A model generated the notes under the pieces. The model was not told the DNA's origin, made no database searches, and saw only the letters and a program-made list of their open reading frames with translations. From NCBI GenBank assembly GCA_036172245.1, contig JAYWIR010000065.1, positions 1 to 64,000 of the forward strand: a stretch of 64,000 nucleotides of DNA, read 5' to 3'. The DNA is from Raillietiella orientalis (taxonomy: Eukaryota). Of the stretch, positions 25,101-52,100 are shown piece after piece (positions within the stretch are counted from its first letter, which is position 1; the number at the start of each line of letters is the position of its first letter). The position numbers and the translations under genes are program-made.

Positions 25101-28100
25101 GTTGTTTTTCGTTTCCATCGAATTTCCGGAGACGCTGCCGTGAATGAGGCTGCGATCTTTCCTTTTGAGCATGGCACAAATACCCTTCAGCATTGGCCGC
25201 TCATCGGACTCTCTCCATCTTTCATAATGGCAATCGTATGCATAAGGAAATCCGAAGATGGAAACTGCGAAACCAAATGAGGCGGCAGTTTCTCACCCCG
25301 GCATCGGTTGCCCACGGGTTTTTCGTATATAATTGTGTTTACAGATTTGGGGATTCCAAGGAGGAGAAAATTCTGTGGGCATCAAAACTGCACTGTCATC
25401 GCGGGTGTGAGACTAGCCGGAAATTGCTTTTCTCGTGTCTACTTCAAGAATCTAAATAGTATCACAGAAATAGATCAAGTTGTTTTCAGCACTACGTAAG
25501 CTGGCAAATAAAATCAGCTGCATGGTCCGAAGAAAAAGGCTCCTTGGACACGATAAGCTTAGGTGATGCGATCGAAAAGGAACAAAAAGCAGAACCATGA
25601 AATTTACCTTCAAAAATCTCAATGTGGTCGTAAATGCAGTTAAAGCTGCTTTCTATTTCGTAGTCCTCGATGGACAGCTCCACAGAGTGATGAGGCTGTG
25701 CTCTTATCGACCACTCGCAGGTCACCCCGTGTTCGTATGCTTCAGGGTATCCAGGAGACTGTATCACCGAGGTATTCGTATAATCGTGCGTGAGAGCGTC
25801 CACGTAGAAGGTACAAGTACCGTTATCTAGTTTTCGCAGAATTCTGAGGTAAGTGCCAGGAGGAGACCGCAGCCTTTTACCTCTCGTCGCATTTTCTGCT
25901 TGCGCATCAGGAACGGCTGACCATTCGAATTCAAAAGATCCAACTCTATGTTCCAAATCCAAACGAGCAACGTTTGATTCTATGTAGATGGGAGACGGGC
26001 AAATGGATCCGCAAATACGGGCGACCACGGGTGCTGTCGCTTCCATGCCAGCATACACCTGGAGGCTAAATGTGCTTATCATGATCTCGAAAGCGTCCAT
26101 TTACCAGCATTGAGTCTATGCATTCATATTCATCATAATAGTCGAATATTCCACCTATGTTCATATGAATACAGCGTAAATATATGTACTCATTAGGAGG
26201 TACTACAATCGTCCATGTTATAATGTCATTTTCAGCATATCGAAGATTGGGCATCGAAACTCTTCCCCAACGTCCTGTCTGGAGGCCTCCAAAACCTGCA
26301 TTTCAATAAATACACGTTGTCGTTATAGCAAAAACAATAAAAGCATGGAAAATCCATTTGCTTCCAACATATGAGAGTATTTCAAATCATGGATGGCTAT
26401 GAAACCGCACCAGCATGGAAGACGAACAGACTTCCCGTCAGAAGAGATTGAAAAGCTGATTTTGAGGAAGCATTCGGAATGCTTCGTCACAACAAGCAGA
26501 GTGTGTTATTGCCGATGGGTACAAATGGGTGCGAAGAAACAAAGAGCTCGTCGTGCCACAGAGAACATTCCACGAAGTTTTGATAAAACCTTTGAGAAGA
26601 GAGAAACAGTCAGTAGATGCGGCAGCTGGAAAGTTCTTGTCTTTTCCCGTGTTTGACTTGAATTACCGCTACTGGCACATGGCAGCAGGCGGCATTATGA
26701 TTCACAAAGGCATTAGCATCAGTCCAGAACTGTACAGGCGAGCAACGCTTCACGGACGTTCCGTTTCTGTCACGGCAACGCTTGGCAATGACATTGTATA
26801 CGCTTAGGTATAAACAAAAAACTTGTACATCATTGCAGCAGCGGCTGTTCTCACAGATACTCATGGCATTCAAAGTGCTACAAGCTGGAATGTCATCATG
26901 ATGCACTCGCCTTGACGGCTGATTGGATATTAGGTGTACAAAAGGAGTAGGAAACATTCATACGAAGCAATGAAAGAAGCTTCAGGGTGAAAAGGGTGAA
27001 ATTGAATTTTGCAGGGACAACCCGGCAGTTCGGTGCAAGAATTTCTCGGCCTTCTCTTTCTAAAGCATACTGCTGGTTCGCTGATACCGAATGGTGATTT
27101 GCGTTGAAAGTGCAAATTCTGCTTCCGGTTTCGTAGTCCCCATCAGCTAACTCATGTGTAAGGCAAGCGGACGTTCCTTCCGTGACTCACAAAGGTACTT
27201 CTTCCACACTGCAGAAAAAAACCACTTTTCTTCTTAGGAAGCAAAGGTCTCTATGGAAAGTGGGTATAGGAGATGTAGCTTCCAATGGCTCTCTGCTGAC
27301 TCCTAAGACGATCAAAATGATGAATTTCTGAATCGAGCTTCCTGGATGGCAAAGTGCTGAGAAGTGTTCGTCTCAGAAAGCGTATTTCGGATAACAAGCA
27401 AACAAGAAACCGGTTCTTGATTTCCGTAACATGGGATGCGGTGGAAATTGCTGACAGCACTCATCTTTCTAGGTGAATAGAAGAATTATTGCGCAATCAT
27501 CTTTGGTTTTGCATCATTTACGGAAATCTCGTGCTTGGAGGTTTGCACGTCACCACTAGAGAATAGAGGGGTAGTACGAGAGCTGATTGCACCCAGTCTC
27601 GAAAGTGGGGTTCTACTTTAAAGCCATTCAAGAACAGAATTTCAGTCTTTCTTAAATCATGACTGCCATTTTCCAGCGAGAGAAAATGTGCGAGAGAAAG
27701 AGGATGAAGAAATACGAACCTAAAAAGCATGCCTGCATTTCCTTGAACACGATTTCAAGATTGCAATTTCTATCGATGCCAGTTTATCTTCTTCAATGAT
27801 TCTGTTCGCAAATCGATAACCTAGTCCTGGATCACCCATTCGCATTTCTTTTGTTCAAAATGAAATGAATTCCTTATGTCCCACCTGGAAAGGGGACAGT
27901 ACGCCTCCTTTCCATTCCCTTATCCATTAGGGAGCGAGAGAGCCTTTTACTACCTATCAGCTGGTGTTTCCGTTTATCTTCGCTACCGAACGCGTGCTCT
28001 CCCTATAATGCATATGCTCTTTTCCAAATGCACATACCCTGCTTTCTGGAGCCATACTGCGGATTGCGACGACACAAGGAAGATACAGGACAAGAAATGT

Positions 28101-31100
28101 TATCAAGGAAGCTTTCGAACACCCTTCTGGATGTCGTATCTCAAGCACTTGGGAGAAAACCTTAAAACAGGCACCACACTGTTCACAGAATCAAAAAAAA
28201 ACCTAAAAAAGTGAATATGACCTCTTTCTCCTCTTTTTGGAACACATGTGACAGTGAGAACTGGCATCTACAAACTGGCTCTTATCCTAGATCGGCAGCC
28301 CCTTAAAAGAAGCCGTCCATTCGGACATCAATATCTGGACCACTGTGCTCTCCTCACTAGTATGTCAAAAGAAGGAAAAAATAAAATAATACGCCTTTGT
28401 AAGTGGCACCGCCTGCTGCGATTTCCTTCATCGAATTTCTCTTTTAAAGTTGACCACAAGAGGAGAAGAAAATTTGTACCGGCATGGACTGAGTACCCGG
28501 CTCCACAATCAATCAATTCAGCTTGTGAAGAAATCTCATCGAGAGAGAAGCTGGCTGCAGCTTACATGCGAAATTAACAGTTCCAACGCCCAAGCTGCAA
28601 TGCTGCGTTCGTGGGTGCATCGCCCCGTGGAAGACTCTTTCATTGGGCGCACTCTTCCATAGAGCGTCTACGATCCTCCAGCGGAGGTGCGAGCTGGAGC
28701 TAGCAACAGGTCCAAGATCACCCAGTACTTTGATGCAGATGTTGCTGAGGTGCGTCATTCACGCTAGTAAGGGATCAAAGTGCGTAGCAGCTCCGGACCA
28801 ATGACAACAAAAGTAAATATGGCATTTTCGCCTTCCGATAACGGAACTATGGTAACCTGGGCCTTTGACGTGAGGATGAGACAGTGCGAATTGCAAGGAA
28901 ATTCAGACAGAGGTAGCTTTCCAAAGGAAGAGGATGACAGAGGAATGTTGTAGGTGTATCTATGCGAAACATCTGCATTCACTACTGCATAGGTATTTTT
29001 CGCAATAGGTGCTCACCTGTTCGCAAAACACTCAGGCATCATCAGAAAGGAAATTTCGAAAAAGGGGCCAAAAAGTATGACCCTCGTCGTTTCAGCGTAG
29101 TGAGGAAAAATGAGCGACAATCTACTGCATCGTCCTATGCCACAATAAGGCGCTCATTCCTGTGGATCAAAAGCTTGCACACAGCTCCACATCAATGCGA
29201 AACGTTCAGCATCGGCTCATTGGTGCTGCTGTGTTCTTTGGGTAACATTGCAGCTGAACTGCGGGATCGAATGCTCGACAGAGGACCGAGTTAGAAGGTC
29301 ATCTGACTTGGCAGCGGAAATGAATCGGCAAATCTGAATTGCAGATGGATTCGTTTGGGAGAAGTTTCAAGGAGGAATATAAAGGAAAAATGCAATCTTC
29401 ACGATTGGTGTGATTCTGGCGTTCCCGAGAAACAAAACTTCCCGACGGGAAAAAACTGTTGCGCGGAACTCGAGCAGCATCTTTTTCGATGTGCGGAAGC
29501 GGAGGTCACGTGCTTCTCCAGGATACTCACGCATCACGTAAGTGGCCTTGAATCCAGAAGAGCTTCCCGTATCGTCGCTCCTGAATTTAATCCAGAGAGA
29601 GGAGTTGGCGTTTATGTTCTCGGGTATTTGGTCGCCGCATCCATTCAACAGCAAGGCGCCGCTCGGATCGTCGGCGTGTATTTCGATGTAGTCCAGGTTG
29701 CAGTGCTCCGAGTGCTCGATATCGAACGCAGAGAAGCTGAGCTGAATCCTGTTCCCTTAGATCGACAGTCTCATGTACTTTTCGGATGCGCAAACTGGCA
29801 TGAAACCTGGAGGAAGGGTAATCGTCCATATGCATTCTATCTGTAGAGGGTAGGCCGCTGGAAACCCAGGGGAAGCAAACTCTCCGCTCAAGGAGGTAAA
29901 GTTGGCTCCACAAGCTGAAGAAGAAACGCAAGTAAGAAAGACAATCCCGGAAAGGGTATGATAGGGATGCCTCTTACCTGAGCTGAACGGGTTGTACAGG
30001 ATCCGAAATTTATCGTCATTCCAAAAGCCTCTGTAGGCAACGGTGAGGAAGGGACCCGACGAAACTACAGGTAGCGGTGTATGGTGCCCGCAGTACTTTC
30101 CCAGTAGCAAGGAGTCCAGGCCATCTCCGTCGTACACCTGTTGGAAACGCATCTCGTAGAAGGGCTGAAGGGACACGAACCTCCACAGGATTGATGCATT
30201 CCTCCACTTGGTATGCGTACGTGTCCATGTAGATGAATGTCAGCGTGATGCGGCTGCCTACAGAATAGAGCTTTGAGTCGGTTGAAAACAAAACTGAGCA
30301 CTCAACCTGGAGTGTCAGATGATATCATCCATATGCAGAGATCATCGTGGTGCAAATTTCCTTCGTTAGAGATTTCTCCTGGTGCTATAGCAACGATCTT
30401 GGTTCCGCATACCTGTAAGTTCGCAAGTGAAACGAATCGTTTTGTTTAAGCAAGGAGACCACGGTACCATGGTGAAGTTCGCCAGAAACCCTTTCGAAGT
30501 CATGCTGTCGTCCGATTTGAAGCGGACCAGCATGAAACTACCGCTGGATCGCACGTGCGGCGGCTGTGGCAGAGTGTTCCCGCAGTGAAGTAGCAACAGG
30601 GGGTCCTCTTCGCTATCTCCATCGAAAACCTGCAAAACAACCATCGAGATGCCTACTGATCACTCTTCAAAAGAAAGGAATTCGAAAATCGTCACGTGAA
30701 ACCAATAAATAAGTGCACAACATGCGACTGTGATTTTGAAGACACGGAGCGGAAAGAGTTTTTTTTCAATGAAAAAAGAAAAGGGGCGAGAAGGAGTTCA
30801 ACACAGGAATCCCAATCCAAAGGGGAAGATCCGCGTCAAAGAACACGAATGATTGCAATGAGGGTCGTGAAACCAATGTCCCGCGAAATGAATAGGTGGG
30901 TGAGGGCGTACGCAACATCCTTTCGTCGGGAAACAGACTCGACGGTCTCAAAAAAAAATCCAAGTACTCTGAGGAGAATGTCTTCCTTCTTTATTAGATG
31001 TCGTTTTTTTTTGTCTACCCAACTGGAAGAGTGTTTCAGAAGCTGTGCTTTTCGAGATCTTCACAAACACGATTCACTTCTGAACACCGGAAGCAACTGT

Positions 31101-34100
31101 TTTGCATGGTCCTCGAGCTTCTCACCCGCATGTCTGGGAGGAATAGATCGTGAAGTCAAACTAGAAACCCATTTGCCAGGCTGAAACACGACATCCTGAT
31201 GTGGCAAAGATGGTGTATCTTCGTATTCCCTCAGACTGTCGCGATCATCTCAGAGGTCGTTCCACTTTAGCCTTCATCTCTTCTCAGAATGTGTTTCTTC
31301 AAGTATTTTCCCTGCACCAACAGGAAGAAATATCGTCTGCCATATACTTTCGTTCCACCACTGCTTTGTCGCCAATCTGTTAAAACAAACCAAACTTGTT
31401 CAGGCTCGCAGAGGTGGTTGCTTTTAATTCCTCTGAAAAATGCTTTCGAATTCGAATGGTCTCATTAGTTGCTGCTTCCGTGCATTCGCCTTTGATAGTC
31501 TGTTTCCAGGGATTCGTGCCATTCAAGAGGGCATCAAAGGATGCCTACAAGACTGAAGCCATGAATTGCCGTTGCAAAGAGTGCCACCCGTCTGGCGATT
31601 GAATTAAACTTTCAAGTGAATTGCAGATTGGCTCAAAACAGCGATCCTACCACTTTGCGTGTGCTGCAGTGCATAATTGGTATACGGAATCACATCAGAG
31701 TCATCTGAAGTATGCATCACTGACGCATTCTCGTTCTCATGCTTCATGTTCTATTTCGTGCTAAGATGAAAAGGATTCCAAGTTTTACCTTGATGAAATC
31801 GAAGCTGCAGTTGCTGTGAGGCTCCACGTCGAAATCTATGAATGTAAGATTCACAGAATACCCATTCTCAACTTCAATTAACCAGGAGCAGTCATCATCA
31901 TAGTCATAATTAAGAGGATAGTTCGGAGACGAAATTGAGCCTGTGGAACTCTTCATGAGCCCTCCGCACCCTTGTACAAAACATAATTGTACCATTCGTC
32001 TTCCTCAAATCTTACCTCCGGGCAGTTCTTCGAAGGATGCGTTGAATTTGTTTAAACTACTGTACAAATGACTGTAGGCTACGAAGATGTGATTCCCTCG
32101 TGATGTGACGCGGGCATCCTTTCCCGTTTGAGAGCAGATTTTTGTGAGCAGTGGAGAATGTGAATCTGGACCTCCGTGGATCTGAAATGAAGAAACACAA
32201 AGAAGAAGAAGGATCCAGGAGACGACAATTATGATGTAAGGACTATGGACGAGAACTGGATGATGAAAAGCATCGTTTTTTTCTTGCATGTACTCCGTCA
32301 AGGAAAACAGCTAGCTGAATTCCATTTATGAATCGATGCTTTGGAAACGGATTCCATCACTTGCTTTTCCTTGACTTAAAAACCCACATTCTGGCTATTT
32401 AGTAGAGTTTCGTCGTAATTTCTTCGCCTTGAATCCCTACAGAATTCAACTTTGAATCATCAAATGAGAGAAAATTTTCTTTCCGTAAGAAGCAATAGGC
32501 TCGGCAGTGTACCTCTCCATTTCAGGAGAGGTATTCTGTCACCACAGCCCTTAAAATGCAGCAGCTGCGATCAGCAGTCTGCGCGAAATTGAACACACGC
32601 GAATTCCTTTTCCAGAAGGTGCCTTTTTCGTGGCAAGTGGAACCTCACCAACTAATCCCATTCCAATCACGGCAGGTGAAACACCATTTCCGATCCTTTC
32701 TCACAATGCTTTCCCTATAATCTTTTTGTTCATACAAAGATCAATTCCAGTTCGCCTAGCAAATATGGCACCTGTCCTTGCAGTGAAGGTGTAGAAAAAG
32801 TAATGCTTTGCTATGACTTGCTGATTGCAGCATCTGCTGTGATTTTCCAAGTGCTCATCTCTAATCAGTAAATATGCATCTTTATCTTCCAAGAAGGGCA
32901 TGCATGTGCGTTTATAGCAAAGAAAACTCCCACTCAGTATTGTCCCGGTTTTTCATTTCTTCCCGCTGTTTGTCTGCCGGAACTCTTATGGAGGCCGTCT
33001 TCTCAACGTTCCCATCTCTTCCCCCTTCCACGCCGTGGCCAACGCACAAGTGCAGCTGCAAGGCTGCAGGTGCGAGCGAAGCAGAAGGTGTTTCGGATGG
33101 AACATTCCCACTTGCCTCATCCTGGCCTCGATTGACCTCCAAGGTGTCATCCTGATTTTCTTCCGCGTTCTCTACGAAAATTGTGCCTGAGCAGTGCTTT
33201 TCTTAGCTCCTCGCAAGAATTTGCATCTTTCAGTATTCACTCATCTCTATCAGCCTCCGTTCTCTGCAGAGGACCCACTTCTTTGACGCTTTCCTTTTGA
33301 TCATGGAAAGAGTTGCTGCTTTCTGTCTCAATCAGATCGTGTCATGGACGGCATCTTCTATTCAGAACCAGCTTCTTCACGAACACTAATGCAAAATGCC
33401 AAAGGGCATGCTGCATCCCAAGGAATCTTCTGAAGCCGTGTGGTTTGCCCAATATCTCATGGATGCGTATTTCATGTAAATAAAACACAAAGGCATCGCT
33501 GGTTGATAATGATTCGTGAATAAACAGCGTTACAGCTTAAACTGCGTCAAAGTTGTTTCCCCGCAGGAATTTCACTTCCGCCTCTCGCGTTCCCAGAGTC
33601 GTTTCCGGAATGATACTCCGATTCCTGTTTAAACAGCGAATGAATGAATCAAATAATGAATCCGTCTCACAAATCAATTGCAAATGAGTCCCCCTAGGCA
33701 CAGTCAAAGCAGCAGCTCGGTGTGCTGTCATGGTCAAGGACATCGCTGCGACGAGTGCTTGAAATCGTCAAGGAATCACTTTGCCTCCCGTGGGAGCGCT
33801 GCACCTTTTTTCCGATACAATTTCTCGCCACGCCGCAGCATTTTGAACGTTACCACTGCCAGAAAATCAGATCATGGATATGACGAGGTTTTTGAGTCCT
33901 TTCAAATTACATCATCACATCATCAATCAGAGGAGGTTTGCTCTTCTCAGCCTGCAGTGTTCAGAACCCTTGTTTCTGGATGCGAGATCCAAAAGTCCAG
34001 TTGAAGAGTCATTGGTCTATGCATTTCTTGCTTGCTCTCTAGGCAACAAGTGCTCCCAGGTGAAGCTCCATTTGGTTCTTTTGAAACGGAAGAAAAGCGT

Positions 34101-37100
34101 GTCTTTGTGTGCAGCGTATGCATCCCAATGCGCGGTTGCACACATGTGTATGCATACATGCATATACGTGTGATCGGACAACGACACTCCTCATGATGTG
34201 TTCTCCATCCATGCAAGAAGATCCAGGAGAGATCACTCCGCGTCTTCTGTGACAATTCGAGTGCGCTCCACTGACCACCTCGTGCTCCTCGCTAAACCCA
34301 TCTTGGAGGGTGAACATCTGTCGTGCACTTCAATTCAGGAAACATTTTCAAGTCCACTGATAGTGAGTCAAGAAATCCTTGGCAAATTCTTGAAATTCCC
34401 CAGCAATGCAACTGAGCTGCTGTGAAGCATCTGCAAACAGAACCACGATCAAATAGATTGTAGAAAGGGGACTTGAGTTCGACAATGCTCATTCGCTTTA
34501 CATTATCCACAAATTCCACTCGAAGGACTTATGACAGTTTTACTGTACAAAACGGAAAAACGGATATGTTTCATTCTTAAGATATCCTCCAGCCGATTCT
34601 TTTAGGAAATCCAAGGATGCTTTTTTAAGGAAGGAAATAAGTCCTCCGTTTGGAGCAAACCGCTACTCCTCTTCTTGAAGAAGGTTCACAATGTTAACTG
34701 ACGACAGGTTCTGTGTGAAAGAACTACCGTATGCAGTTTCTTGACTGACATGTCCGTGAACGCCTTCAGTTGAGCTACTGCTCACTGATGAGGTGCGATC
34801 GGGAAAATCGTGAGCCATCATTTCCCTTCGAAAAATGCGTTCCTGATTTCAAAGTGCGCCGATGTCCCCACGGAAACCCAGCTTTCCGATCCTGCCTGTT
34901 GCTAAATTAGCATGACGTCAGTAGTGCGAACCTCAGCTTTTGTCTCCGAGTCAATGTCGCAGTATTTCTAGAGAACATGTGATCATAGCTTCCTTACCTG
35001 AAGAAATTCGTATTCGCAATCCGTGAATCCTTGAATCTCGAAATTTTCAACGGTCAGTTGGATCCTGTTTCCGTATGGAACAGTAATACGCCACTCACAT
35101 CCCTTGCTTTCCTTAGGTGTCCTCGGGTAGCTGGGCGAGGCGAAAACCCCGTGGGCTTTGTAGTAAAATACATCCCCGCATCCTGTAAACAAGATAACAT
35201 GTAATGACTCCATCTGTATTCGAGCACAACGAGATCAAGCCAATTTAAAAAGCACAGATTCTTGTGCAGTCTTGAACTTGACAAACTCTATTCTCCTTAT
35301 TTCTCAATTTCATGAAATGCGTGTACACAACATGAAACAGCTTCTCACCGTCAACAACCCATTCGAGCCGGAATCTGTTCGAGAAGGCGTAGGACGTCCC
35401 AGCAGACAGCACTATCGCTACTTCATGACTTTTGCTCCTCAAAGGCAATGGAGAATTCGTTCCACACACTTTTCTATTGCTTTCTCCATCGATCACCTTG
35501 AACGAGAAAGAATCATATCGAGCACAAGTGATAAATGCACCAAATGATAAAAAGTCGCCATGTTTGCAAGGAGAAGAAAGCTGATTTCCTTCAGTGGGAA
35601 GGTCAGATGTAGTCAACGCGGGATTCCGAGCGCGCCGCAGTATCTTTCTCTTGTGATGCTGCAGACGGCTTCGCATTGTCCGTGCGCATGTAAGATGGAA
35701 TGCTTTGCTGGAATTTCGAGATGCGGCGACCCAACTTTTATCACTCAAAGATTCATGAACTCTTTGGTGTTGCTAGTTGATTTCCGAATTCGAGAACGTG
35801 TACCATGCCTCCAATTATTCGCGAGATTCAAAGAATATCTGCTCTTGATTTGAAGCATCTTTTCAGAAGAGATAACCGATTGATTGGTTCGCACTTGGAT
35901 TGTTATTTCGGTGAAAAGTGCCCATCTGGATTCATCCGATTTTGAGCAGCTGTTGCATCTTTCGCCAACCAATCAACCCTTTATCGCCCACAACTTTCCA
36001 GTATTTTTACTGTCTATACCGACTTGATCCCTCCAGTTGCCAACGAAAGAGAAGAAATACGGAATCTTTTAATTTGAAGGAATAGATCCGAACAATCTTT
36101 GAGCACCAGTTCTTGCTGGCGAGAAAGCAAAGTTCGATCACCATCAGTGACCACCACTACATAATCATCATGAACTGCTTCTCGAGCATCCCTGTCAATT
36201 TCCCTGCGGTGTTTTTTTAACCGGTTCATCCTGTGCATGGAAACGAGAGTGTAGAAATTCGTCAAAGTTGCGATTGACCGCTTGCTTAGAAATGTGTCTC
36301 AAGTATCAAACTGACGCGCCGCAACTGTCGGGGCTCCTGCTCCTATTACGATGCCAAGGGGACAGATGTGACCAGCCGAGAAGTAGATGAGAGGATGAGG
36401 AAAGGCGGAATAGATCGAAAGGAGTTGTATGGAAAGAGCTGAGCATTCATAAGCTCTCAGTTTCCAGTGCACCGAAAAGATCTAGTGGGTTCTTGGAGCC
36501 CTGTGCTCTTCTTGGAAAGAAACAGGTCACGAGAACGTGAGAGAATAGAAAACAAGAGTCTGTGGGATAAACTTTCGCAGAATGAGAAGCAATGCTGATC
36601 TTCTTCGAGTGCTTTTTCAGCTCACCTCTAAGTAGTTTTCGCTGCAATCTGGATGGTCCGATGGTATGAAGAAGGTCGAGAAAGTGATGTTTATCTTGTT
36701 ATTCATAGGAACGGTGATCAGCCACCGGCAGTTCTGTTTGCCGGGATGAGGATCGGGGAAGTTTGGACTTTCGATCACTCCCCGGGAACCGTAAAGAGTG
36801 ACATTGCAATCTGGAAAGGAGCAGCAAGTTTGAAAAGTGGGAACAGGAAGTGCTGGAGTACCAGTAAAATACTGCAGCGAAAAGCCTCTTCCCGTATTCA
36901 TGGAGTCCGTGTGGAACTTGACGGTAGCCCAGTTGCTAGTCATGGGGCGTACAATTGGTAAGGAGTCTCCGCAGAAAGTCCCCACAGAAGGGGAAGCAGT
37001 ACTCCTCCCATCGTAAATCTGGGAGCAGGTGGAATCAATGAGGGTCCACAGGAATGCGGCAGGCAGCTCACTTGCACGTAATCATAGTGACAATCATCCG

Positions 37101-40100
37101 TCTGCTCCACGTCCAGATCGTTAAAAACAAGGAACAGACGGCTCCCTTCATTTCCGTGTATTTTCCACACGCATTCAGCGTAGTCGTCATAGTTGTGGGG
37201 ATAATTTGGGGAGATGATTCTTCCTTGGTAAGAGGTGAGCAGACCACCACAACCTGACGTACGCAAAAGTATCCTTTTTTTATTTTTTGTTTCTTTCGCC
37301 AAGAGAAAATCACCTGTAAGAGTTCCGTCCCAAACTATATAAAAGCCCGGTGCCGATAGGAAATAGTCGCTGTGGAATCGTAGGTACAACGCGTTGCTGT
37401 GGGAAGGAATTATGTGCGGAATCGTTTCTCCGCAGAAGCGCCCAATCAGCGGTGAGTTATCGTAACCTCCATTCCTGCAATGCAATGATTGCAGTCGGAA
37501 AAGAGGCCCACGGCAGCAGCTTTCCTGATTTCCAAGTAATCTGTTCTGCAGGTGGTGTGATTTTCCAAGGAAAAGTGCGTGATGTTGAGAAGTATCTGTT
37601 GGCGGGTCGGGGCAACGATTTTCCACACACAATCCATGTTGTGTGGATATGCCGCCGGATATCCGGGACTCATGATGATTCCATTCGATCTGTAGTAACT
37701 TCCTCCACAGGCTACCTGGGAATGAGCTTCTGAATCGGCTGTGGTCTTTACCTGATGACACATTCAGGAAGTGGTAAGTTAAACTGAACCCAGCGTGTGA
37801 AATGAGGTGGTCGGTACGGAAGTGAATGGTCACCATATTTCCAAATGAAGTCATCACCGGTGGCACATTGAGTCCGCAAAATCTGTCGAACAAAAGATCG
37901 TTGGTTTGTTTCCGGAGGAGCATTTCCGATTTCGAGGGACCAAAATTGATCTCCAGCATGCGAGTGTTCGGATGGGTTTCCTTAACGACGCAGCGTTTTC
38001 GGGGACTGCGTTCGTTAGTGCGATTGGAAGAGCAGAAGGACTGGAAGAGCGGCCTCAATCGGTCTGTTGCAGGATGAGGAAACTGTGGTTTGACTGATTC
38101 TCTGGCCTTTTTGAGATGCGCGTTCAACGATACATTTCTGCGCATTTTCAGAAACGTCGCATTCTGAGCAGAGCGCAAACGCCTGATAAATATGCGCGCG
38201 CACAAGAGGTCACGGTTTTTGAACTCGTCTCTGGGTTATTCTCTTTGCTGTGAACTGCTCCCTAGAAGCCTTGAATACGTGTGAGGCGATCGTTTGAATA
38301 TTCCATGCTACCGTGTGAGCTAAATCGCAGCAAAGAGAATAACACAGAGACCACGTGGAAACTTCTCGAAGGCTGCAACTTTTTGCTTTACAAAGTTTTC
38401 AATTTGGAAACTTTCTGTACAGTACAAAAGGAATCGGCATCCACATCGCACAAACTTTTGCGTCATCACGATGATTCGTGCTGACGGAATCATCGACGTT
38501 GTTGGCTGAATTTGGATTGGCAAAGGTGCACATACGTGGATAGCGAACATGCTAGAAGAATCCACAAGCAATCAAAATTGTGGCTGCCCTCTGTGATGAG
38601 CTAAGTTGACTCCAAGTCGATTGCTCTCATCTTGAAGCAAGTAGATCGCTCACTTGAAATAAACTGCGAGACAGTTTTCGCATTTTCGAATTCGTAATTG
38701 GAAATTCTGGCCCTTCTACGCGACTGAAAAGCATTCATTGGAAACGACACGCAACTGATAGAAACCACATTCTGTGGGTTCGGTGGCTGGAAGTCAGCAA
38801 TCAAGCGCGAGTGCAACTCGGACGTTCACTTGTCTATAAATCATCCTCAGAAAACTCCACAGTGACACCAGAGAGAAGTTTCTAGGAAAAAGTGGCAGTC
38901 TCTGTATGCTTTTCTGAAGAATGCTTTGCGTCGTACGAAACCGCGATAACAGGGAATGCTGACATGAAGGAGAAAACTGTGCGGGGATCTCAAGCACTTT
39001 GGGCACCTCCTATAGGAACAGCTTACCTTCTCATCAGGCCTGCAGTTCCAGGGATGGTTGAGTTGTCGTAAATTTCGATGTAGTCGTAGGTGCATTCACT
39101 GTCATCCTCCAATTCGAAAGTCAAGAAGGTGATCTGGATCGCGAATCCCGGAGGCGCGATGATAATCCACGTGCAGGTCAGGTTGTCAGGGTATGTTTCC
39201 GGATGAGATGGGGAGCTGATGGTTGCTATTTCTTCTCTGTAAACACCTCCACAATCTGGAAGAAAGATGAAGAGTCTGAAGCTGGCTTTCTAGTCTGAGT
39301 GTTTGCACTTTCGTAGGTAGTCCCTTCCTTCTGAGAGACACTTGGAGATCAAGCTTAGCAGCGTCCAGTGTGTAGTGGCGGTGAAATTCGATAATCTAAA
39401 TGTGAAACGGGAATGGATCATTCGACAGAACCAAGTTGCCAGACGATCTCTTAGAAATCCATATCAAGAGTCTGGACGGAAGGTATGATGGATTTTACAA
39501 AGAGCGCACTCCGCTATATGCTGTAGAATTGTTTCGAGTCCGTTTTCTCCTTTTGCTGTTCCGAAAAGGTGGGATGCTTTTTTTCTGCTCGCGCCACCGT
39601 TGAAAAATAAACATTCCTCCAAAACATCCCAGTCATGATCGTTATCCAGAAACTGCATCCCTATCACGAGCACCGAAATGCCGATTCTCTAATTTGGAAT
39701 GCGATGTGCTTTCAGGTGGCGGAAGCCACTGACTCACAGCACTCCGCTTTGCGAATGCTTCATCCTGTCGATATGAAAACTGTACAATGTGTCAATCTGA
39801 ACAAACAACGAAAAGGTAGGAAGTGAGGCCAAGGGGCTGCGAGTAGGCTTTCCTAGAAACAAACTCTCCATGCCATCCAATAGCGCTTTTCAATACGCAA
39901 GGGCTACAGCGTGATGGCAACGCGGACACGAGTGAAGCAGGTCGGACAAATTCCAAATCCCTAAAGCATGGATGATGGGTGGTGTTCCGAGACGACTTCC
40001 ACGCTTCATGGAACTACGATTGGGGAATCGTTCCCCATCGCGGTTCTCGGTGCTTGGTCTATAGTGCAACAACATCAAAATGAGGGCCAAAGGAACTCTC

Positions 40101-43100
40101 AAAGAATGCACTTCGAACCAAACAAGGTTAGGGAATCGATCTTCAAAATCAGATATCACTGGTACTTGGGCGAGGGGGAAGAGAAGGCTCACCCTGTCAA
40201 ATTTCATTGATTCCCAAGAGTTTGAGTTGTACCACGTTCGTAGGATTCAGCGTACCAACAAAAGAGAGCCTTCGTCAGCCTCAACAACGTGGGAAACCAA
40301 GAAACTACCTTGATCGTGGAAGGAGTACTTTCCGTATTTTATAGTGACTTTTTTTCTTCCTGCAAGTGATATAATTGCAGTGAATGTCACGAATTTTGGA
40401 CGTCTGTTATGCTAGAAAACAGCTGATCTTTTCAGAGGGAACCTGGAACCTTCTATTTCCCCGTAATTTCAGACAATCCCTTGGTAACGATAAGATGGAA
40501 TGAGATGAGGGTTGCAATGTACTTGAGGCATCACTTTAAATGAACCAGCGGAGGAACTTTCAAACGATTGCAAACCTTCGAGAATCATGTGTACTCTTTT
40601 CTCCACATTCACGGGTCACGAGACACTGTTTCCAGTAAAAGTTCCAGTTTCCAGCAAGCAACCTCCCTAAGGCGCGCTATCGAGTCCTGTGAATCGCAGC
40701 ATGGCAGGCGCACTTTCGTTTAGCACGGTAATCGAAAGGGCGGGGGCCACACTCGATACGCGCATCCCGAAACGTGCCGTCGCGGTTTTGAATAGGGCAG
40801 TCGCCACGTTGGCGCATCATCACCTCTGATGGCGCAAATGCAAGCTTCTTCCAGCACGTGCAACTTGTTCTCCGTACTCTTTCCCAATCCTCGACGAGCT
40901 GACCTTCCGATTTCGATTCCTGTAGTTTTCTGAAGTCTCCATTGCTGCGTATGTCTCCGCGGGAAGGTTCGAGTTCACAAAAGAGGGAGCAGCACGAATT
41001 CGAAAATGCTGTGCAAAAACTAGCGAAAGCCAAATCTGAAGGGCGAGTTTATGGGAAAAGGTTCGAAAAGAGCGCTGCTAAGTTGCCGCCCACTCACCTT
41101 CCATGGACAGAGGCATGGCGAATCTCCCTGGGGATTCTCAACTCGGAGAATTAGACGAGCTCAAAGGACCAGCTCTCTAAACCGAATCGTTTCATGATTC
41201 AGGATTCCCCATATCACAGCACACAAATGATGTTTGCGAATCGCCTATGTACCCGGTCCACACCACTCCTGTTGATGTGGAGAAACCCTTCCGATCCACC
41301 CACTTGCGGCAACGTCTTTTTATGCACAAACTCCAAATGCATTGCGAAAAGCTCAACGAGGCAGCTTTGCTCCGATAGCTGGTCCTCGATTTCATCCACA
41401 AATTCAGTACACGATGGAAAGAACTGCATGATCTCAAAAGGGATGCGAAAGGCACGAAAAACGGTACAACGTCTACGCTACATCGTCCTGGACTGCACTG
41501 CAGTGCTGCACCATGGTTCAAAGTCATAGATCGGAATGGGAGTAAGCAGAGGAGGGAGCAATCTCTGATTTGCGTCTCCTTGCAGCTTGTAGGAATGGTG
41601 CTCTTTGAATGATCGCCGCACGCAAAAAGACACGGTAAAATGAGGCGGCTCTTGAAACGCTGAGGAGGAATGAGACTGCCAAGGACGCTTTCACAGCACG
41701 GCTAACCAGTCATACTAAATTTCGATCTGGTCGCACGTGGAACAAAGGGCGTGGTTCTGCAATTTCCTCCTCAGCTTTTCGGAAACGTCAAGAGCTCACC
41801 TGAGAGAGAAACACGCGTTCGGTACTCTCACACGCTTACCTGTGTCCAAAGAAGTCAGTTCCGCTAAGAAGCCGCGGTTCCAAATGGAATCGTCAGTCAC
41901 GAACCTCAGCCAGAGGTAATTCATAGATGAGATCACTGGATCCGGAGTGTACTCGGGGGAACCGCAGTATTTTCCCAACAAGGGGTAGCTATCATCTGGG
42001 CCGTCGTGGATCTGGAAAAACCTGTGTAGCGCTGGGATTCAGATAAGGGTTACTGAGATACCTCCAGGTAGTCATATAAGCAAGTGTCGTTGTCACCCTC
42101 GATGTCGAAGCTGACGAACGTCAGTTTTATAGCCTTGTGTGCATCCGCAGCCAAGATGTAGATGCATTCCCGATTGTTGGGATAGAAGTCCGGGAAGCCG
42201 GGAGAGTGCACTTTCCCACTTTCAACTCTTACGAGGCCACCGCAGCCTACGGAAGAGAGTGTTACCATGTTGACAACACGATCATCACTGGGACTAGCAA
42301 GCAGCCCTATTTCCGAAACGACGAAGAGCCAGCCCAAGGACCCTCATTCTTTCTTCCTCCGAGAACGAACTCCAGATTCGCCTATGCCGCCGGCAACTAT
42401 TCATTCCGTCTGCAATCTGCATTCAAGCGACTCGGGTGCCCTCTGCTTTGCTTTTTTCTTGCAGATACCCATCACTTCTTTTCCATCGGAAACTGCACTT
42501 TCTCGGGAGAATTTGCTGCTGCCAACGGTATGGGAGCACTGTCCTTCCGCCCGTCCACGATGGACTCCATCGAGACTCTTGGAGACGAGCTACGGTTTCG
42601 GAACTTTCCATGCGTCCAAAGCAGATTCTCTTCGGATCGGTCCGACTGCCCACAGGCTGTTGAAAACTTTCTTGATGACTGACACGAATTCACACTGATT
42701 CGCGACACGAATTGCATTTCGCGCAAGTACAGTCACCACTTGCAGAAATCCCTTGGCGAACAGCACCATTATCCATGAAAATCGAATGATTTAGAGAAAA
42801 GTCGAAAAGAACCCTCTTCCATTTCATGCAATCCCCCACAAACCACTTTCGTAACAACCGAAGGGTCAGTCAAAGCTTTACATCAGACTCTGTTCTACAC
42901 GTGCCAATGACCTCCGTACAACTTGGTCTCAAGGAGTGGCTGCAGATGGCATATGAGAAAGGCAAACCGAGAAATGCCGATTTCAACGCCAGCAAATAGA
43001 AAGAACTCTGTTCTTGAAGCTTCAAGATGCACTGACGCTCCGAGATCTATTGGCTTCCCGCCGAAGAATAAAACAGCTCTTTATGAATAGAAGAGTACAC

Positions 43101-46100
43101 CTTGCGAGCCGCTGCAAGCGACCTCATTGAAGAAATCGGTGTTCCTTGCTCTTGCGTTCTCACATTTCCACGAAAAGTGGGACTGACAAGCGCTCGGCTA
43201 CCACCAGGAAGATTCCTTTAGATCTGCAGCGTTAGGAGAACCGCTTGAATCTTACTGACGAAATCAGTTCTTTTGTTAGACGGGAAGTCTACGATCACGG
43301 CGGAAGACACTTTCCCTTAATGTTCATCTTCAAGCCGAAGAAGCCAAACGAAGCTCTGAGCTGCACTGCACGTGTGATTGCAGTAAGCTATTGATGCAAG
43401 ATATCTTCCATCAACAGCTTCATGATGCTTCACAAGTAACGTGAAAAGCTGCGTTTTTGAAAGGCTCTTCAGCACAGTTCCGCAGTGCACACGTGTGAGC
43501 GAAAACTCCTGTTTTGGGGGAAAAAAAGGAACAGCTCCACAGTGACTGAGCTTCCTACAGAAATGCGATCACATAGAAGACGGAATTTCACTTATCGCCT
43601 TTGTAGAAAGAAGGGACAAAGGGCACGCTATGTCTTGGGGCTTCATGTGAAGAAGAAAACACAGGGTTCTCAAAATTCGTCTGTACCATGCTACTGGTAG
43701 ACTGTACGATAGCTGCTGCGAAGAACCGATTAACCCTGCCCGAAAAAAGGGAAACAAAAGATCTGACGATCCCCGAAATGCGTGTTCTTGACATGTACAC
43801 CGCAAGAGCACACTGGTGGTAGCCAACGGAGAAACGGGAAAGCATCATGCAGAGAAGTGGACGATATCTTGTACATAAACTCGGCTTTACGTGGCACGCT
43901 ACCGAAGACACGGACTGTCCAATATGAGCGGAGTTCCGCGTTCGTCTGCTCTGAGAACACGGATGGAAAATAAACCGAGTGGGAAGGATTCGAACTTGGA
44001 GATGCACCGTCAATTCTAATTCGAGGAAGCAGTGGATCAAATAGGTTCGCTCCCTTTGGACTTATGTTGTGATTCGCTATGAAGCCGCTGATGAGCTGTG
44101 AAACAACCTCTGCTGTTGAGACGGAATGAGAACTCCAACGTTCCCTATCGTAAAGCTAAGCTTAAAACAACGAGCATGGATAAAACGACCTTTGCAAGGA
44201 GAGCAGCGCTGTTTATAGAAAGAGAAAACTAAAGTGGAAAATCATCAGCATCCCGATTCGTCATGTTTGGTTGCGAGATCGTCTTTTTCAGAGGAAAATG
44301 AAAGTTTTCAAATCCATGAATCGTCAACCCACATGTGAAGGAACATGTGATGCTGTCAAACTGAGATCATTTGATGGATACACACGAGGTTTTGGTACCT
44401 TTCATTCAAGCTGTAACAACGGATTGGGAAAATTTCGACATCTCTTTCTAATGCAAAGGTTTGTTGCTCTTACTTGTATTGAAATGTGCGGAGAATCCTC
44501 CCGCAGTGTAACTCTCATCTGAACGAAATCGTACGAACAACTTGTTTCCAAGAGACGTGTATCTAGGCGGAAGGCTGGAGCCGCAGTACTTGCCCACCAG
44601 CGGACTCGATACACTCTCACCTTCCCTTATCTGGATGAAAGAATGGCGATCAACATGCAGATTGAGAGAACAGTTCGCATAATTTTTCTACCTGGCATGC
44701 TGAATTGCGTTCACTGTGGTCAAGTCACGCGGATGGGGAAGCGCAAGCAAAGGAAAATCGCTTACCTCCACATAGTCGAAAGTGCAATTCTCGTCTTCCT
44801 CGAGATCGAAATCCGTGAAGTACAAGTCTATTCGATCATCTGGATGTGTTCGAATGACCCAGTCGCATTCCAATCTGTTCATGTACATTCCTTTATGGGA
44901 GGGCGACGCAATAGTCCCATCGCTTTGCGTTAGGATGCCTCCACATCCAGGAATAGCTAGGTGAAGCACACGCAGTCGGCTGTTGTTGCAATCAGAGACG
45001 CTTACTAGGAATGCCACTGAACAGGACGTAAAAACCCTGATCTGCATTCAGATGGTCGGAATGGAAGATTACGGAAGCGTAACTTCCAGAAGACGTTAGA
45101 ATCGGTGGAGATGTAGTGTTGCAAAACTTCCCGAGAAGTGGACTTTCTGGATGCAAGCCATCCCGTACCTTGGAGTTCGAATGCATGAAAATGATGAGCA
45201 GCTTTAATCAGAGAAAATTTGTTGCATGATCTCAAGGAGAAAGCAGGAAGAATAGCATCCGAGGTGTCCAGCAAAGCACTCGAAGGAGACTTGGTATGTG
45301 GAATAACGACAAATGGCCTGTTGCGCCCATGGCAACGAGCGTGAATGCCCTTGTTGAGTATCACGCGAAATGGAACAATTTCAAGAAGGATTTAATGAGT
45401 GTTGAAATGGGAAGACTCCATTCCAAGGGGTAGGACTTGCGATGTTTCGAAGCAGTCGCTCAGTGCTGTCCGAAACTTTGCAGAGATTTCACAACTGGAC
45501 ATTAAGGCACCCTTTGTTTGTGCAACGATTGCAAATTGGTTCCCAATGTAAATAAAGACAAAGACAGAATCAAAGATTACGACGTCATTCGTGGAACCTA
45601 GTGAAGAGCATCAGGGTACAAAGTATGCTACATGCAACTCTCTGCTGCACGAGCTGGACGGCTACAACAACCGCATCTACACAAGAGGGTTACGACTTCA
45701 AATGAGGGCACGAACAAGGCAAACACTGAATTAGAGGAATTTTGCATTCCAAGAGGAACGTAATTGCCACAATCCACCTGAAAGCTGAATACCTTAAAGG
45801 TGTCGATTGCGAAACTTCCTCAGGAATTCATTCTTGGATGGAAGAAAAGAATACACTCATCAACTCATCTCTGCTGGAATGCGGATAGTCTCGTTTAGAA
45901 CATTCGTGAAGAAGCCACCGATGATTTGCAAGAAACAAGTACGGAACGAGGTCTCCTGACTACAGGATCCATGTATACAGTCAGCAAAAAGAATGGCATT
46001 CCGTTCAAGAGGACACAATAATTGTTTCCAAGATGCATGTGAAGCACCAAAGACCACATTTATTTGGGAACCAGAGAGAAAGCCATGGTACCAACAGAAG

Positions 46101-49100
46101 AAAGAGTTAATCCTTAAAGGGCAAACGATCCAAACGCATTGTTCCTCCTGCTGATGGCTACGACGCTAAAAGGAAAATGAGCTTAGCCCGCGACCAAAGT
46201 TCCAATTCCTCACTGCTTTGACAAGCAGGTATTAAGCGCATGCTGACGGAAGCTGCCAGTCGTTTTTCGGTAAGTCGAAAATTGCAAGAAATCAAAATGT
46301 GAATAACCTCAAGGTAGTCAAACTTGCAATCCTCGTGTGCCTCTAGCTTCAGCGTGACGAACTGAAACTGGATTCTCTTGCCAGGAGGCATTGTAACTCT
46401 CCAGTGACAATCCCGGTTACCGGGGTAGTTTCCTGGATATCCTGGAGACGTGAAGAATCCTTGTTCCTCCACGAATTCTCCCCCGCAGACTTTGCTCAAA
46501 GAAATGAGTTTCTGTGGAGATTGGAGGACACCTCCTTACCTGGGCTTTCAGCTGTCCAAAGCACGGTGAATCCGAAATGCGAAACGCTGAGGTCGGAGTG
46601 AAACCAGATGAGAGCAGCATTCTGACTGGTCAGCATGCTCGGGGGCGCATGCTCGCCACAGTAGCGACCAATCAGATGCGAGTCGAATCGAGGACCGTCG
46701 TACACCTTACTCACTACCTCGAAAATTGAAAAGCTCAAGCAGCCATTACCTGTACCCAATCGAACTGGCAGTCATCTGATTCTTCCAGCTCGAAGGATGA
46801 AAACGAAAGGTTGAGGACTTTATCGTGGTCCACCGTTATGACCCATGAGCAACTCGATCCGGCAGGGTATGTCTCCCTCTCGTCTTGGGGAAAGCGGAAA
46901 GAGCCAGCAGACTGGCCGGAGAAAATTCCACCACACTCTGCATAAAACAAAACTGAACGTCACTTCCACTACTTTTCGCTTGTGCCTTCTTTCAACGAAA
47001 AGTCCCTTTTTTCTCAGCGGACAGAAGGAAAGCAAGCGGGAGACTTCCTCGGCCCTGCTCGCAGGCGTGCTGTCACCAAAATACTCGCTTGACCCCTGCT
47101 TTGTGCTTTGCACGAGTCACTCCGCGGTTCCGCAAAGGTGGCATCCCTTTCCCAATCGTGTGCTCTCAGGAACGCTCGTTTCAGTCATTTCAGTTGACGT
47201 CACTCTTCCGGTCGACCGCTAGCCAGGCCGATCCTCGTGGTGGTGTGCTCACTAGTGACGTGTTCACTTGATCTTTAATACTTGGTAGCCCCTCACCCTT
47301 TGAACTACGGCTTCTCAGGGTACTCATCAGTGACTTGGGTCACACTGACCGGAAAACCCGATTCGTGGACTATGCCGCATGATCAGCAACAGCAGTGAAC
47401 AGCGGTGAGAATATGAACGAAAGCCAATTTTCTCTCAAACAACACTTCGGCCATCAGAGAAGCTTGCAGATGGCAAGAAGAATATCTCCATGAAAGGCGA
47501 ACGTTGATGTGAGATTCGATGAAGGAATTCATCCGGCGTGAGTGGGGTTGGGTAAAATTGCTGCGTATCCCCAACCTTGCTGGATAACGAATACAATTGA
47601 CTGCCGGTGATTCCTGTTCTTGATCGGATTAGCAGTTGAGTCCATTTGGAAAACTGGTTCCTCGGGCAGCAGAAACGTGCGGCCTGCAGAAAAAGTCAAA
47701 GAAGCAAAACTTTTGCAGCAGCTGAAGCGTTAGAATTGCTTGCACGAGCACCCAAAAGCTTTCTAGCTGGCTCTTCGCCTCGAGCTCGCATTCCAACATT
47801 CATGAATGCCTTCACTCCATTTATCCAGAAGTTTTCTAGAAACAACTACTGCTCGGAGAATCCTTAGCTTGACCTTTTTAACTATTCAACTTTTAGAAGT
47901 GAGTTCTTTTCCGGTCGAAACTTTGCATGCATTCGTCAAAGCGCACTGTGGTGATTGCGGTTCTTTGAACGGAAGCAGCGGATGAAGAGATCAAGAAATC
48001 GCTATCTTCCCAAATCTTACCCTGCACTTCTGGAAGCAAGTAACAGAATGCACCTCACTTCTTCCCTTTAATATCTGAAGAGCTCATCGTCGAATCTATT
48101 CCCACCCAGCGCTTCGGAGTCCACAAAAACTGCTGGCAATGTCTCTCGGTTGAAGAGGTCTACCTGACCTCTTCAACCGAGAACCCTGCGAATGAAGCGG
48201 CTACACACCCTGATGCTTTCTACCCGAAACAGCTGATTGACAAAGCACTCTTGAGCTGGCAAATTCGAGCGTAGTCACCAAGGAACACTATGAAGAATGC
48301 CCATCATCCTTTCGCGAGGCAAAGGACGAGTGGTACAGGAATGAACGAGCAGTCGGCATATTTCAGCTGACACGTTGCGCATTCCCGGGAACACTGTGCT
48401 TGCAAGTGTGTTGTTCCCATTCACGTGCGAATGCCACTTTTCCTGTCAGGAGCACCCATGTAAACTTGCAGGCGTTCAAGGGGCAGGCGTGCTTCTTCAA
48501 AGTGCCAACAACAAAGGTAACACGGATGGAAGGATGGTGCGTAGTAACTTCAAAGTGCATGCGAACCGTTGTAGGAGTTTTTTCTGAACGGCGGGGACGT
48601 TCCGAAATCTACTGAGATTGCTGCATCGTACAGAAAGAAGCCCTTCTTGTCGTCCTTCACGGTTTTTTTGCTTACGTGTATCAAAAGAGCGTGTCTAGAC
48701 GAATCGGATTGTGAAACTCACCAATGCCAGTCCTTCAACAAAAGCGCACCTGCCGAGTGCTTGAGGGGAACGAAACGAGAGTTCCAAAACAGGAATCGCC
48801 AAATTCACTAATAAAATGATGATCTTTCCCAATGCAAGACAAAGACATTTCGACTCTGTAGATGCAAATATTCCAAAAGGCTTCCAATCAAAGCCACTCG
48901 TCTTTCGAAATGTCTCCTCAACAAGCGAATACGAATAGAACATTTGCACTGCAGTACCGATTTCCACGGCTCCATCATCATCCTTCTCAGAGTAGAGCAT
49001 TTTCGAAGATTCAGACATTGGATCGAACACAGTAGCCGTAAAGAGATTGAGGAGGAGAACGGACTCGATTCGCTCACCTTGCTCTTGCACCTCGCAATGC

Positions 49101-52100
49101 AATCCAGAAAATCCTTCCGGACAACGACAGGCGTAACCTTGCTGACCACTTACACATGTGCCTCCATTTTCGCATGGACTGCTTGTGCATTCGCTCAGTT
49201 CCACTTCGCAGTTCTTCCCTAAGAGCAAAAAGAAGGCATTGTCGATGCAGAAGTGTAAGAGATGGCATGCAAAGTGGATTTCAAGTTAGTGGATTTCGCT
49301 CCTGCCACGGACAGTTCGACCTCTAGATGCTCAGCACAAAGTTCATTACCTGTGAATCTCGGAATGCAGTTGCACACGTAAGACGCAGAACTGCTTCTGG
49401 AACAGCTCCCAAAAATGCAAGGGTTGCTGCTACACGGGTTTACAGCGATTGTCATATTGGTGGGTTCATCCGTGAATGTGCATCCAAGAGGACCCACTCC
49501 GTTCCCAGTCATACCCGCTGGACACAAACACTGAACATATGTTTCCGAAATTCCTGAAAGCATGTCTAGAGTAAACAGGAAAGCAGTAAGCCGGAAGGTC
49601 ACCTAAATTTCCGAGGCAAATTGCGGATGGATGGCAGCCACCATTGTGAAAATGACAAATTCCTGCATATATGCAGGATGTGCCATCCCCTATGTATGCC
49701 GCCGGGCATTCGCCACATTTCCGTGAACCCTAAAAGAAACACCGGCTCTCGACTTTCTTTTATTTATCGCGGTCAGGAAAAAAGAATATATCATCTCCCC
49801 CGCGTTTCAGAATCCTTCTTTCAGCTTTCCGAAAAGAGATTTTGAGATTAAAGTGACCATAAGGGCTTCTATCAACTGCTTGCCCAACTGGGAATTGTTT
49901 CTCGAGGATCCTTTTCCAATTTTATGATACCCCAATATAGGTTCGCAGTAAATGAAGCGATTCGAAGTTTGAATTCCATGAGGATAACTCGCAAAACTCT
50001 TTGCATCTCAAATTATGGAGAGACTCTAACCAAACGCAGTGAAATAATCCATTAGCGTTTTAATGGAATACCGTATAAAGGCAACTGAAACTCCACCCTT
50101 GGGGAAAAATATCGGAAACCAGCATCAGAGTATTTTTTTCTTCACGGCTTACATGAAATCCTTTCGATTTGTGTTTGGTGCAGTGAACCTCAGCATGAGA
50201 TGCTCAACGCTCTCTGTTCAGCATCTCATTGGATTTAAGTTTGCACGCCTCAGATTCCAAGAGGTTGCTTTTTCCCACATATCCACTTGCGATTTCTGCT
50301 TCCGTTCATCCAACGGTGTTTCTACCTTTTGACAACTCTCAAGTCCATTTATTCCGGTGGTCCCCAAAGTTCAAGAGGCTCTTGTCGAAGAGAAGCGGTA
50401 AATCGGATTTGATAAAAAAAAGAAAAAAATAAGGTAACGGTTGCGCATTCAACTGAACTGAAAATGCAGAGCATCTTTCTGGGAGAGAAGATCACAAGAT
50501 TTGAGAAATGGGAAAGCATAAATCCGACTAGGATTTGGAGGACTGGGCATGCTGATTCCTCAATGGTGCGATCCCAGCAGCCGAACCTCATTTGACCTAT
50601 TGTGGAGGGTTTCAAAAGAAAATAGGCGGTGGGAGAAGCGATATGCTCGGAAGAAAAATGAAATACTTGTTAGCGGTGTTTCGAAAACGGCAGGATTTTT
50701 CCTATCCCGAAGAGAAGCAATACTCGCAAAAATTAGTGGACCCTTTGGAACGGTTACTTTTTCCCTACTCAGAAAGGGGAATGCCAGGTCAAGGTTTCTT
50801 ACAGGAGTGTTGATGCAGGTAACGAGAGGATTGGTGCTGCAGCCGCCGTTGTCAACTTCGCATTCATTGAGATCTGTGCATACGAACCCGTTCCCAACGT
50901 ATCCTGAAAGTCCAATCCTAGTTCTCGGATTAAAGTATCGCAAGCTTCTTCACCTTGAGGACAGGAGCCACAAGTGAATGATCCGGGAACATTCATGCAG
51001 GACACCAAGGGATGACGTGAGCAGGGGAACGCATCGTTGCATTCGTCGACGTCAACTGTGCAGGAAGGATTTTCCAACGTGTTCTTCCATCCCTGCAAGT
51101 ACATTCACCTAAATACGATGAATCGGCAAAGTATACAAGGAACAGTGTGCAAGAAACGGTGTTTGATCATACAGCAATGCTTGCATTTTCTGTAGAAAGT
51201 AATCACCCAAGTCCACCTTGAACTCTAGACGAGTTCCACGATGAGGTGATTTCAATCCAGTAAGACGAGGGCGCCAGAGACGCAAACATCTCTTGAAGAT
51301 GGAACGCGAGAGCACGACCACTCATTTATACTCACGGGATCGCATAAACAAGTATAAGGGTGATGCGATCCTGGCCTTCGTTGGTTCAGGCAAATCCCAT
51401 GAGCGCACAGTTCGTGGGAGTCTCCCCGTTCGCAGGAATCGTTTCTCAGGCTGCAGTGCAAGCCATGAAATCCGCCTGCACAGATGCACCTGCAACCAAG
51501 AAGAGCAATTTACGTGGAAAATTTCTCAGTAGCCACTCGACGGTCGCTTCCTTATCCCAACAAGTGAAAAGAAAACCCCACCGACGCCACCTTCTTTCTC
51601 CCTGGCGAGCAGTCACTTCCGTACGCGCGAGAAATGCAGAGAGCGTCCTTACTCGAAACTTCCGGGTGTGTTGATGCAGCGCGCTCCGTTCTGACACGGC
51701 TCTGCGCTCCCTTCCAAGCATTCGTCCACGTCCGTTTCGCACAGCAAGCCCTATTCAGGGATCTCGAGTGCGAGACTGGACCCTGCTTCCTCCCGCTACC
51801 TTCCATCCTATCGGGCAGTGGCACATGAAATGGTTGAAAGCATCGACACACGTAGCCCCGTGGCGGCAAGGGTCGCTGCGGCATTCATTTTCGTTGAGGA
51901 GGTCTTCCAGAGAGCGCATCTTGGTCTCAAGAGCCCGGATCTGGAAAAAAAAGGTTGAATGGAGCAAATTTCCTCGAAGCAAGCAGGCGGGAATCGCAGT
52001 GTTCCCTTTGTGGTTTCTTCTTCGCGCTTCCATCATGCCGCGGAACTTCCAAGATGCCAAGATCGCTTTTCACTGAACGGTATTTTGAGCGTGATGGAAA

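Follow-up and report, generated by a model that had tools for sequence, protein, structure and literature searches.

A candidate GA-AG intron in the sixth CUB domain of a cubilin-like gene

Results

A cubilin-like gene on the minus strand

The window, by which we mean the whole stretch of 64,000 nucleotides analyzed here, carries a cubilin-like gene consisting of an N-terminal part, EGF exons, and 27 CUB domains (Table 1). Pieces matching a CUB profile built from the proteins found in this work occur on the minus strand only, from position 46935 down to 8088, and the 27 domains follow one another in order on that one strand, the weakly matching pieces having been resolved separately as first halves or whole domains. 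The N-terminal and EGF exons (55503..49079) are colinear in tblastn with residues 48–534 of the cubilin-like protein XP_074652971.1 of Tubulanus polymorphus (P0006), the EGF exons themselves with residues 159–534. The best matches of a 431-residue open reading frame spanning the locus are cubilin and cubilin-like proteins of 3,300–3,800 residues from a nemertean, a scallop, sea urchins, a frog, a damselfly, a horseshoe crab, and a mite, all at similar identity. Like cubilin, which comprises 8 EGF and 27 CUB domains, the gene places its 27 CUB domains after the EGF exons, colinear with the T. polymorphus protein, with which it also has the CUB6 signature EIRNGGY..SPLIGR.CG in common. Judged from its sequence, the gene is a cubilin orthologue; it differs from the named cubilins in that identity to them is only 34–38%, and it is therefore placed in a lineage without a close annotated relative.

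Protein searches over longer, near, and shorter length ranges returned no same-species or close protein, the closest being a Logan fragment (P0173) at 45% identity, and the top identity in the representative protein search was 44%. Among metagenome contigs, the protein pattern of the first half of CUB6 matched 171 stretches, none of which was confirmed, and an exact 31-nt exon pattern gave 0 matches. An Rfam search of the window gave 0 matches, and the window is therefore taken to contain no U1 gene; Pfam assigned 0 families to 20 other long open reading frames of the window, which thus offers no second recognizable gene from which more introns or taxonomic evidence could be drawn. Positions 1–4000 of the window have a G+C content of 0.55–0.57, compared with 0.43–0.53 elsewhere, and hold long open reading frames on both strands with no Pfam match.

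Table 1. Positions of the cubilin-like gene and of the exons, introns, and splice signals discussed in the text. A slash marks an exon-intron boundary.
Feature	Positions	Strand	Details
Cubilin-like gene: N-terminal part, EGF exons, 27 CUB domains	8088..55503	minus	CUB profile, tblastn, best matches
Candidate GA-AG intron, 50 nt, phase 2	37475..37524	minus	Splits the Arg codon AG/G of E-I-R-N-G in CUB6
Exon with first CUB6 half (CGGSYY...TDYLEIR)	37525..37715	minus	CUB profile positions 1–64
Intron 5' of first CUB6 exon	37761..37716 (alternative 37751..37712)	minus	GT-AG
Exon with second CUB6 half (...WDGTLTG)	37314..37474	minus	CUB profile to position 111
Intron 3' of second CUB6 exon	37313..37254	minus	GT-AG, 60 nt
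Rival GC-AG intron, 41 nt, phase 1	37467..37507	minus	Frame-keeping, stop-free
GC-AG intron between CUB20 and CUB21, 61 nt, phase 1	14720..14780	minus	AAG/gcatgc...atatcag/GA
Donor CAG/GAAAGCT, consensus CAG/GTAAGC with A at +2 (37523)	37518..37527	minus	Flank score
Acceptor region ...atcattgcattgcag/GA	37475..37489	minus	Acceptor score 7.65, mid-range

Catalogue of introns

Introns were placed by profile matches, open reading frame limits, and frame constraints. For some GT-AG introns, in the linkers and the EGF region, the boundaries given are those that scored best and are not proven, and the catalogue is incomplete in that the exons for residues ~92–159 of the T. polymorphus protein were not located. 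It holds 57 introns, comprising 55 GT-AG, one GC-AG, and the one candidate GA-AG intron. The lengths of the GT-AG introns are bimodal, with 28 of the 55 at 40–63 nt and the others at 131–3434 nt. The sole other non-GT donor belongs to the GC-AG intron at the CUB20-CUB21 junction, for which there is no GT-AG solution; here the GC-AG product reads ...RSKGCGGLF, and the donor at 14780 has a flank score of 5.08, above 38 of the 55 real donors. Three CUB-to-CUB junctions were left intronless, of which CUB17-CUB18 and CUB26-CUB27 are plainly contiguous and CUB13-CUB14 is a single open frame with a long linker and no GT-AG solution within the limits used. CUB13 (25591–26290, minus strand) is weak on the CUB profile, at 17–20 bits per half, and is followed by the long in-frame linker; it may be a degenerate domain, and the boundaries of the model are least certain there. 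CUB22–24 (11875–13103, minus strand) consist of one exon each; most other CUB domains are split, usually in phase 0 after DY-x-E.

The other cubilin exons examined were free of frameshifts and in-frame stops. The gene is thus otherwise intact, with 27 CUB domains, colinear EGF exons, and canonical solutions at the other junctions examined, and its integrity argues against an old pseudogene.

The interruption of CUB6

Read directly on the minus strand, CUB6 contains GAT TAC TTG GAA ATC AG/gaaagctgctgccgtgggcctcttttccgactgcaatcattgcattgcag/G AAT GGA GGT TAC, in which the interruption between the slashes opens with GA (G at position 37524, A at 37523) and closes with AG. If the 50 nt are kept, the frame shifts and a stop is reached 25 codons on (open reading frame 37446..37763). 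The upstream half of the domain corresponds to positions 1–64 of the Pfam CUB profile (PF00431), and on the profile built in this analysis the two halves cover positions 1–64 and 57–111. A first-pass annotation of this DNA had proposed a GA..AG interruption at 37524..37475 on the minus strand of CUB6, of a size typical of the short introns of the gene, whose retention would break the frame. All of this is confirmed: the interruption is present in the sequence and the domain is the sixth CUB, the stop in the open reading frame bears out the effect of retention, and 50 nt falls in the short class of the catalogued introns.

The hexamer CAGGAA stands at both ends of the interruption, so that the cut can be placed in seven ways with one identical product, among which only the GA-AG placement has an AG acceptor. 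The intron lies 5 nt downstream of the position usual for intra-CUB introns in this gene, which is in phase 0 after DY-x-E. U12-type introns have a 5' end of the form RTATCCTT and a TCCTTAAC-like branch site near the 3' end; inspection by eye led to rejection of this class, the CUB6 interruption having the 5' end GAAAGCTG and no such branch motif. The 8-mer CCGACTGC occurs 21 and 19 nt before the 3' end in the introns at 44957–45005 and 37475–37524 (minus strand), respectively, and in these two short introns it may be a branch-site-like motif or a chance occurrence.

Exact removal of the 50 nucleotides

All donor and acceptor pairs near the junction that keep the frame and yield a stop-free product (1364 pairs giving 819 distinct peptides) were scored against the CUB profile. 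Removal of the 50 nt obtained the top score, 137.8 bits, and zero GT-AG pairs were present among the 1364. Other dinucleotide pairs that ranked high among the deletions, GT-AC included, were rejected because they lack an AG acceptor and score lower. Run as a control on the 22 intra-CUB junctions, the procedure found a GT-AG solution at 21, that is, at all except CUB6; this solution ranked first in 9 and among the top 4 in 17, with ranks of 9, 10, 48, and 125 for the remainder, the last of these in a weakly scoring domain. When CUB6 is aligned with the best-matching domain of each of 29 cubilin relatives, all 29 alignments run without a gap from DY-x-E to the CG of the same domain, and the GA-AG product shares the gap-free E-x-R-N-G...SPLIG spacing with all of them. 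The residues at the junction are R-N-G in 25 relatives, R-D/Q-G in two, and Y-N/D-G in two. Given the top deletion score and the gap-free spacing in the relatives, a working mRNA must lack exactly these 50 nt, and the earlier proposal that their exact removal restores the conserved motif is upheld.

The same annotation had called the intron apparently obligatory, finding no nearby GT or GC in the required phase 2. That observation is correct and no GT-AG alternative exists among the 1364 pairs, but a weak GC..AG pair in phase 1 (37507..37467), which also keeps the frame, had been overlooked. If this pair were the one spliced, the gene would encode an altered CUB6, and some features allow for it: the product is stop-free and retains a CUB profile score of 127.7 bits, and a GC-AG intron is present elsewhere in the gene (14780..14720). 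The splice signals and the product both speak against it. The donor flank, TGG/GCCTCT, scores −7.80, below all 55 real donors and in contrast to the 5.08 of the real GC donor of the gene, and none of the 41 real acceptors compared scores as low as its acceptor, at −0.37. Relative to all 29 aligned relatives the product carries 3 extra residues, and the R-N-G motif is gone from it; it falls ~10 bits short of the GA-AG product, and it is outscored by that product against 28 of the 29 relatives. We therefore give use of the GC-AG pair very little credence.

Strength of the donor and acceptor signals

The donor had been described as the consensus sequence except for T>A at +2, and this description holds. 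With positions +1 and +2 ignored, its flanks score 7.78, higher than those of 54 of the 55 real donors of the gene, and a score of at least 7.78 is found at only 5 of 63,990 minus-strand positions. Full AG/GTAAG is present in 7 of the 55 real donors and CAG/GTAAG in 4, and to these 4 the CUB6 site is identical at −3 to −1 and +3 to +5. The acceptor outscores 17 of the 41 real acceptors that had been catalogued at that stage. On account of the flank score, its rarity in the window, and the acceptor score, the CUB6 site is, as far as its letters can indicate, a donor with one deviant base at +2 and not a chance GA.

Coverage by an independent DNA run

Eight contigs of an independent low-depth DNA run (X1) align to the window with 0 mismatches; positions 37339–38005, which include the CUB6 donor, are outside their cover. 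In the same run, contigs of higher depth (~18–22x, compared with ~2x elsewhere) contain a joint that skips 936 nt and a 5-nt insertion, both located within long introns (31058–31995 and 32811). These may represent repeats or the DNA of another organism, given that the joint has only 21 letters on its shorter side.

Discussion

Explanations for the GA dinucleotide

The first-pass annotation had offered three readings of the GA, namely a donor tolerated when its flanks are strong, a base-call error, and a loss-of-function allele, and each of them keeps a share of the probability here. The probabilities expressed are our own judgement and were not computed. We consider it slightly better than an even chance that the 50 nt are a genuine short U2-type intron of the cubilin orthologue, spliced although its 5' end is GA and not GT. 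In the mechanism that we propose, CAG/G-AAGC would pair with U1 snRNA at −3 to +1 and at +3 to +5, the strength of this pairing would make up for the mismatch at +2, and the intron would leave via an ordinary acceptor, ...ttgcag/G, to give the conserved CUB6. A GA donor kept by selection should carry flanks of such strength, whereas a random T>A miscall or mutation would meet AG/G-AAG in about 1 case in 8 (13%), because 7 of the 55 donors carry AG/GTAAG. Against splicing at GA, a T>A change at +2 usually kills a donor in ordinary spliceosomes, as reported for human minigenes, in which one of six +2T>A variants gave full-length product (12%) and five gave none (PMC12805630); furthermore, a lone T>A in a perfect consensus donor is what is expected from a miscall or a fresh mutation. 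Its standing as one GA among 57 catalogued introns, the rarity of GA donors in human introns, and its position off the usual intra-CUB site weigh in the same direction.

That expectation is the core of the principal competing explanation, to which we assign a substantial probability that nevertheless stays below one half, namely that this is an ordinary GT-AG intron in which the A at 37523 is a substitution error of the assembly or a recent null or leaky T>A allele on the assembled haplotype. A change of one base restores the consensus CAG/GTAAGC, the other 56 introns are canonical (55 GT-AG and one GC-AG), the substitution is usually inactivating in the minigene variants just cited, and the gene is otherwise intact, as expected of an error or of a young allele. 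Nevertheless, a random strike would have found so strong a site with a chance of only ~13%; no frameshift or stop occurs in the other cubilin exons examined, and the assembly is therefore not visibly error-prone here; and the eight contigs of run X1 agree with the window at every letter they cover, albeit away from 37523. With this difference in flanks and a gene that is intact in other respects, a spliced GA-AG intron is somewhat likelier than an error or a null or leaky allele.

It is also conceivable, with a probability that we put as low as that of the GC-AG pair, that the 50 nt are a recent insertion in a once-uninterrupted exon, either as a newly gained intron or as a disabling insertion. 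The direct repeat of CAGGAA at both ends, the position away from the usual phase-0 intra-CUB site of the gene, and the existence of intronless CUB domains in the same gene (CUB22–24, which are single exons) all fit such an event. However, four of the six repeated bases (CAG/G) are simply what the splice consensus prescribes at either end. In the window the 50-mer occurs only once, its next-best match being 11 nt, and it forms no tandem repeat; in length and composition it resembles the other short introns of the gene.

Frequency of GA donors in the gene and elsewhere

GA-AG introns are a known, rare class, and the CUB6 site is a possible further case. GA donors number 14 of 222,263 human introns as quoted by Robertson (2017, PMC5714493), a source that describes most human GA sites as alternative. 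In the copepod Eurytemora affinis the same report gives GA donors in 31 of 297 and in 54 of 623 introns, with AG obligate at the exon end and A almost always at +3, and in Oikopleura dioica GA-AG introns are reported to be common and likewise to have AG at the exon end and A at +3 (Frey and Pucker 2020, PMC7072748). The first-pass annotation had named these two lineages as precedents, and what the two articles report supports it: the AG/GAA context of the described GA donors matches the CUB6 site, which has both the AG exon end and the A at +3.

That this genome tolerates GA donors, one of the options it had offered, finds no sign in the window, where the other 56 introns are 55 GT-AG and one GC-AG. 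At a GA rate of 10%, at most one GA donor in 57 introns would be seen ~3% of the time by our calculation. The single GA in 57 argues against a rate of ~10%, at the level of Eurytemora, and is compatible with one of ~3% or of ~0.01%. We regard as unlikely the broader proposal that this is a further animal lineage, beyond Eurytemora and the appendicularians, in which the spliceosome takes GA after an exon-final AG provided that +3 to +5 are AAG, and in which constitutive GA-AG introns are many.

Should the GA donor prove real and spliced, a poorly sampled animal lineage would have a constitutive GA-AG intron in a receptor gene that looks essential, and gene predictors that allow only GT and GC donors would break the cubilin model at CUB6. 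Many such introns in the genome, if they exist, would constitute a further independent case of relaxed recognition at +2 and would bear on the reading of the 5' splice site by U1 and U6. If the A is a miscall or belongs to a null allele, the site is relevant only for polishing the assembly or as a loss-of-function variant that segregates.

Comparison with known GA-AG and GC-AG introns

The introns described for Eurytemora affinis and Oikopleura dioica resemble that of CUB6 in the GA at the 5' end, the AG at the 3' end, the AG of the exon, and the A at +3, and in the setting of a long multi-exon gene whose modelling is blocked unless GA-AG is allowed. E. affinis, for which GG donors are described as well (Robertson 2017, PMC5714493), differs from the present case in the frequencies given above, compared with 1 of 57 introns here, in one gene; moreover, the best protein matches of the present gene are from neither a copepod nor a tunicate. 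Isolated GA donors are known in vertebrates from FGFR1-3 (Brackenridge et al. 2003, as cited in PMC5714493 and PMC7072748). Both the FGFR1-3 sites and the leaky +2T>A variants of PMC12805630, as these sources present them, are similar to CUB6 in being a single GA donor in consensus context within an otherwise GT genome. The FGFR site, however, reportedly needs a canonical site that lies six nucleotides upstream of it (PMC7072748), whereas CUB6 has no GT in the 36 nt upstream of 37524, and whereas human GA sites are described as mostly alternative, the GA donor of CUB6 would need to be used constitutively. GC-AG introns, the major non-canonical class of U2-type introns, share with CUB6 a deviation at +2 that strong flanks would offset, although, unlike A, a C at +2 is widely tolerated, and the GC-AG pair within CUB6 itself has poor signals.
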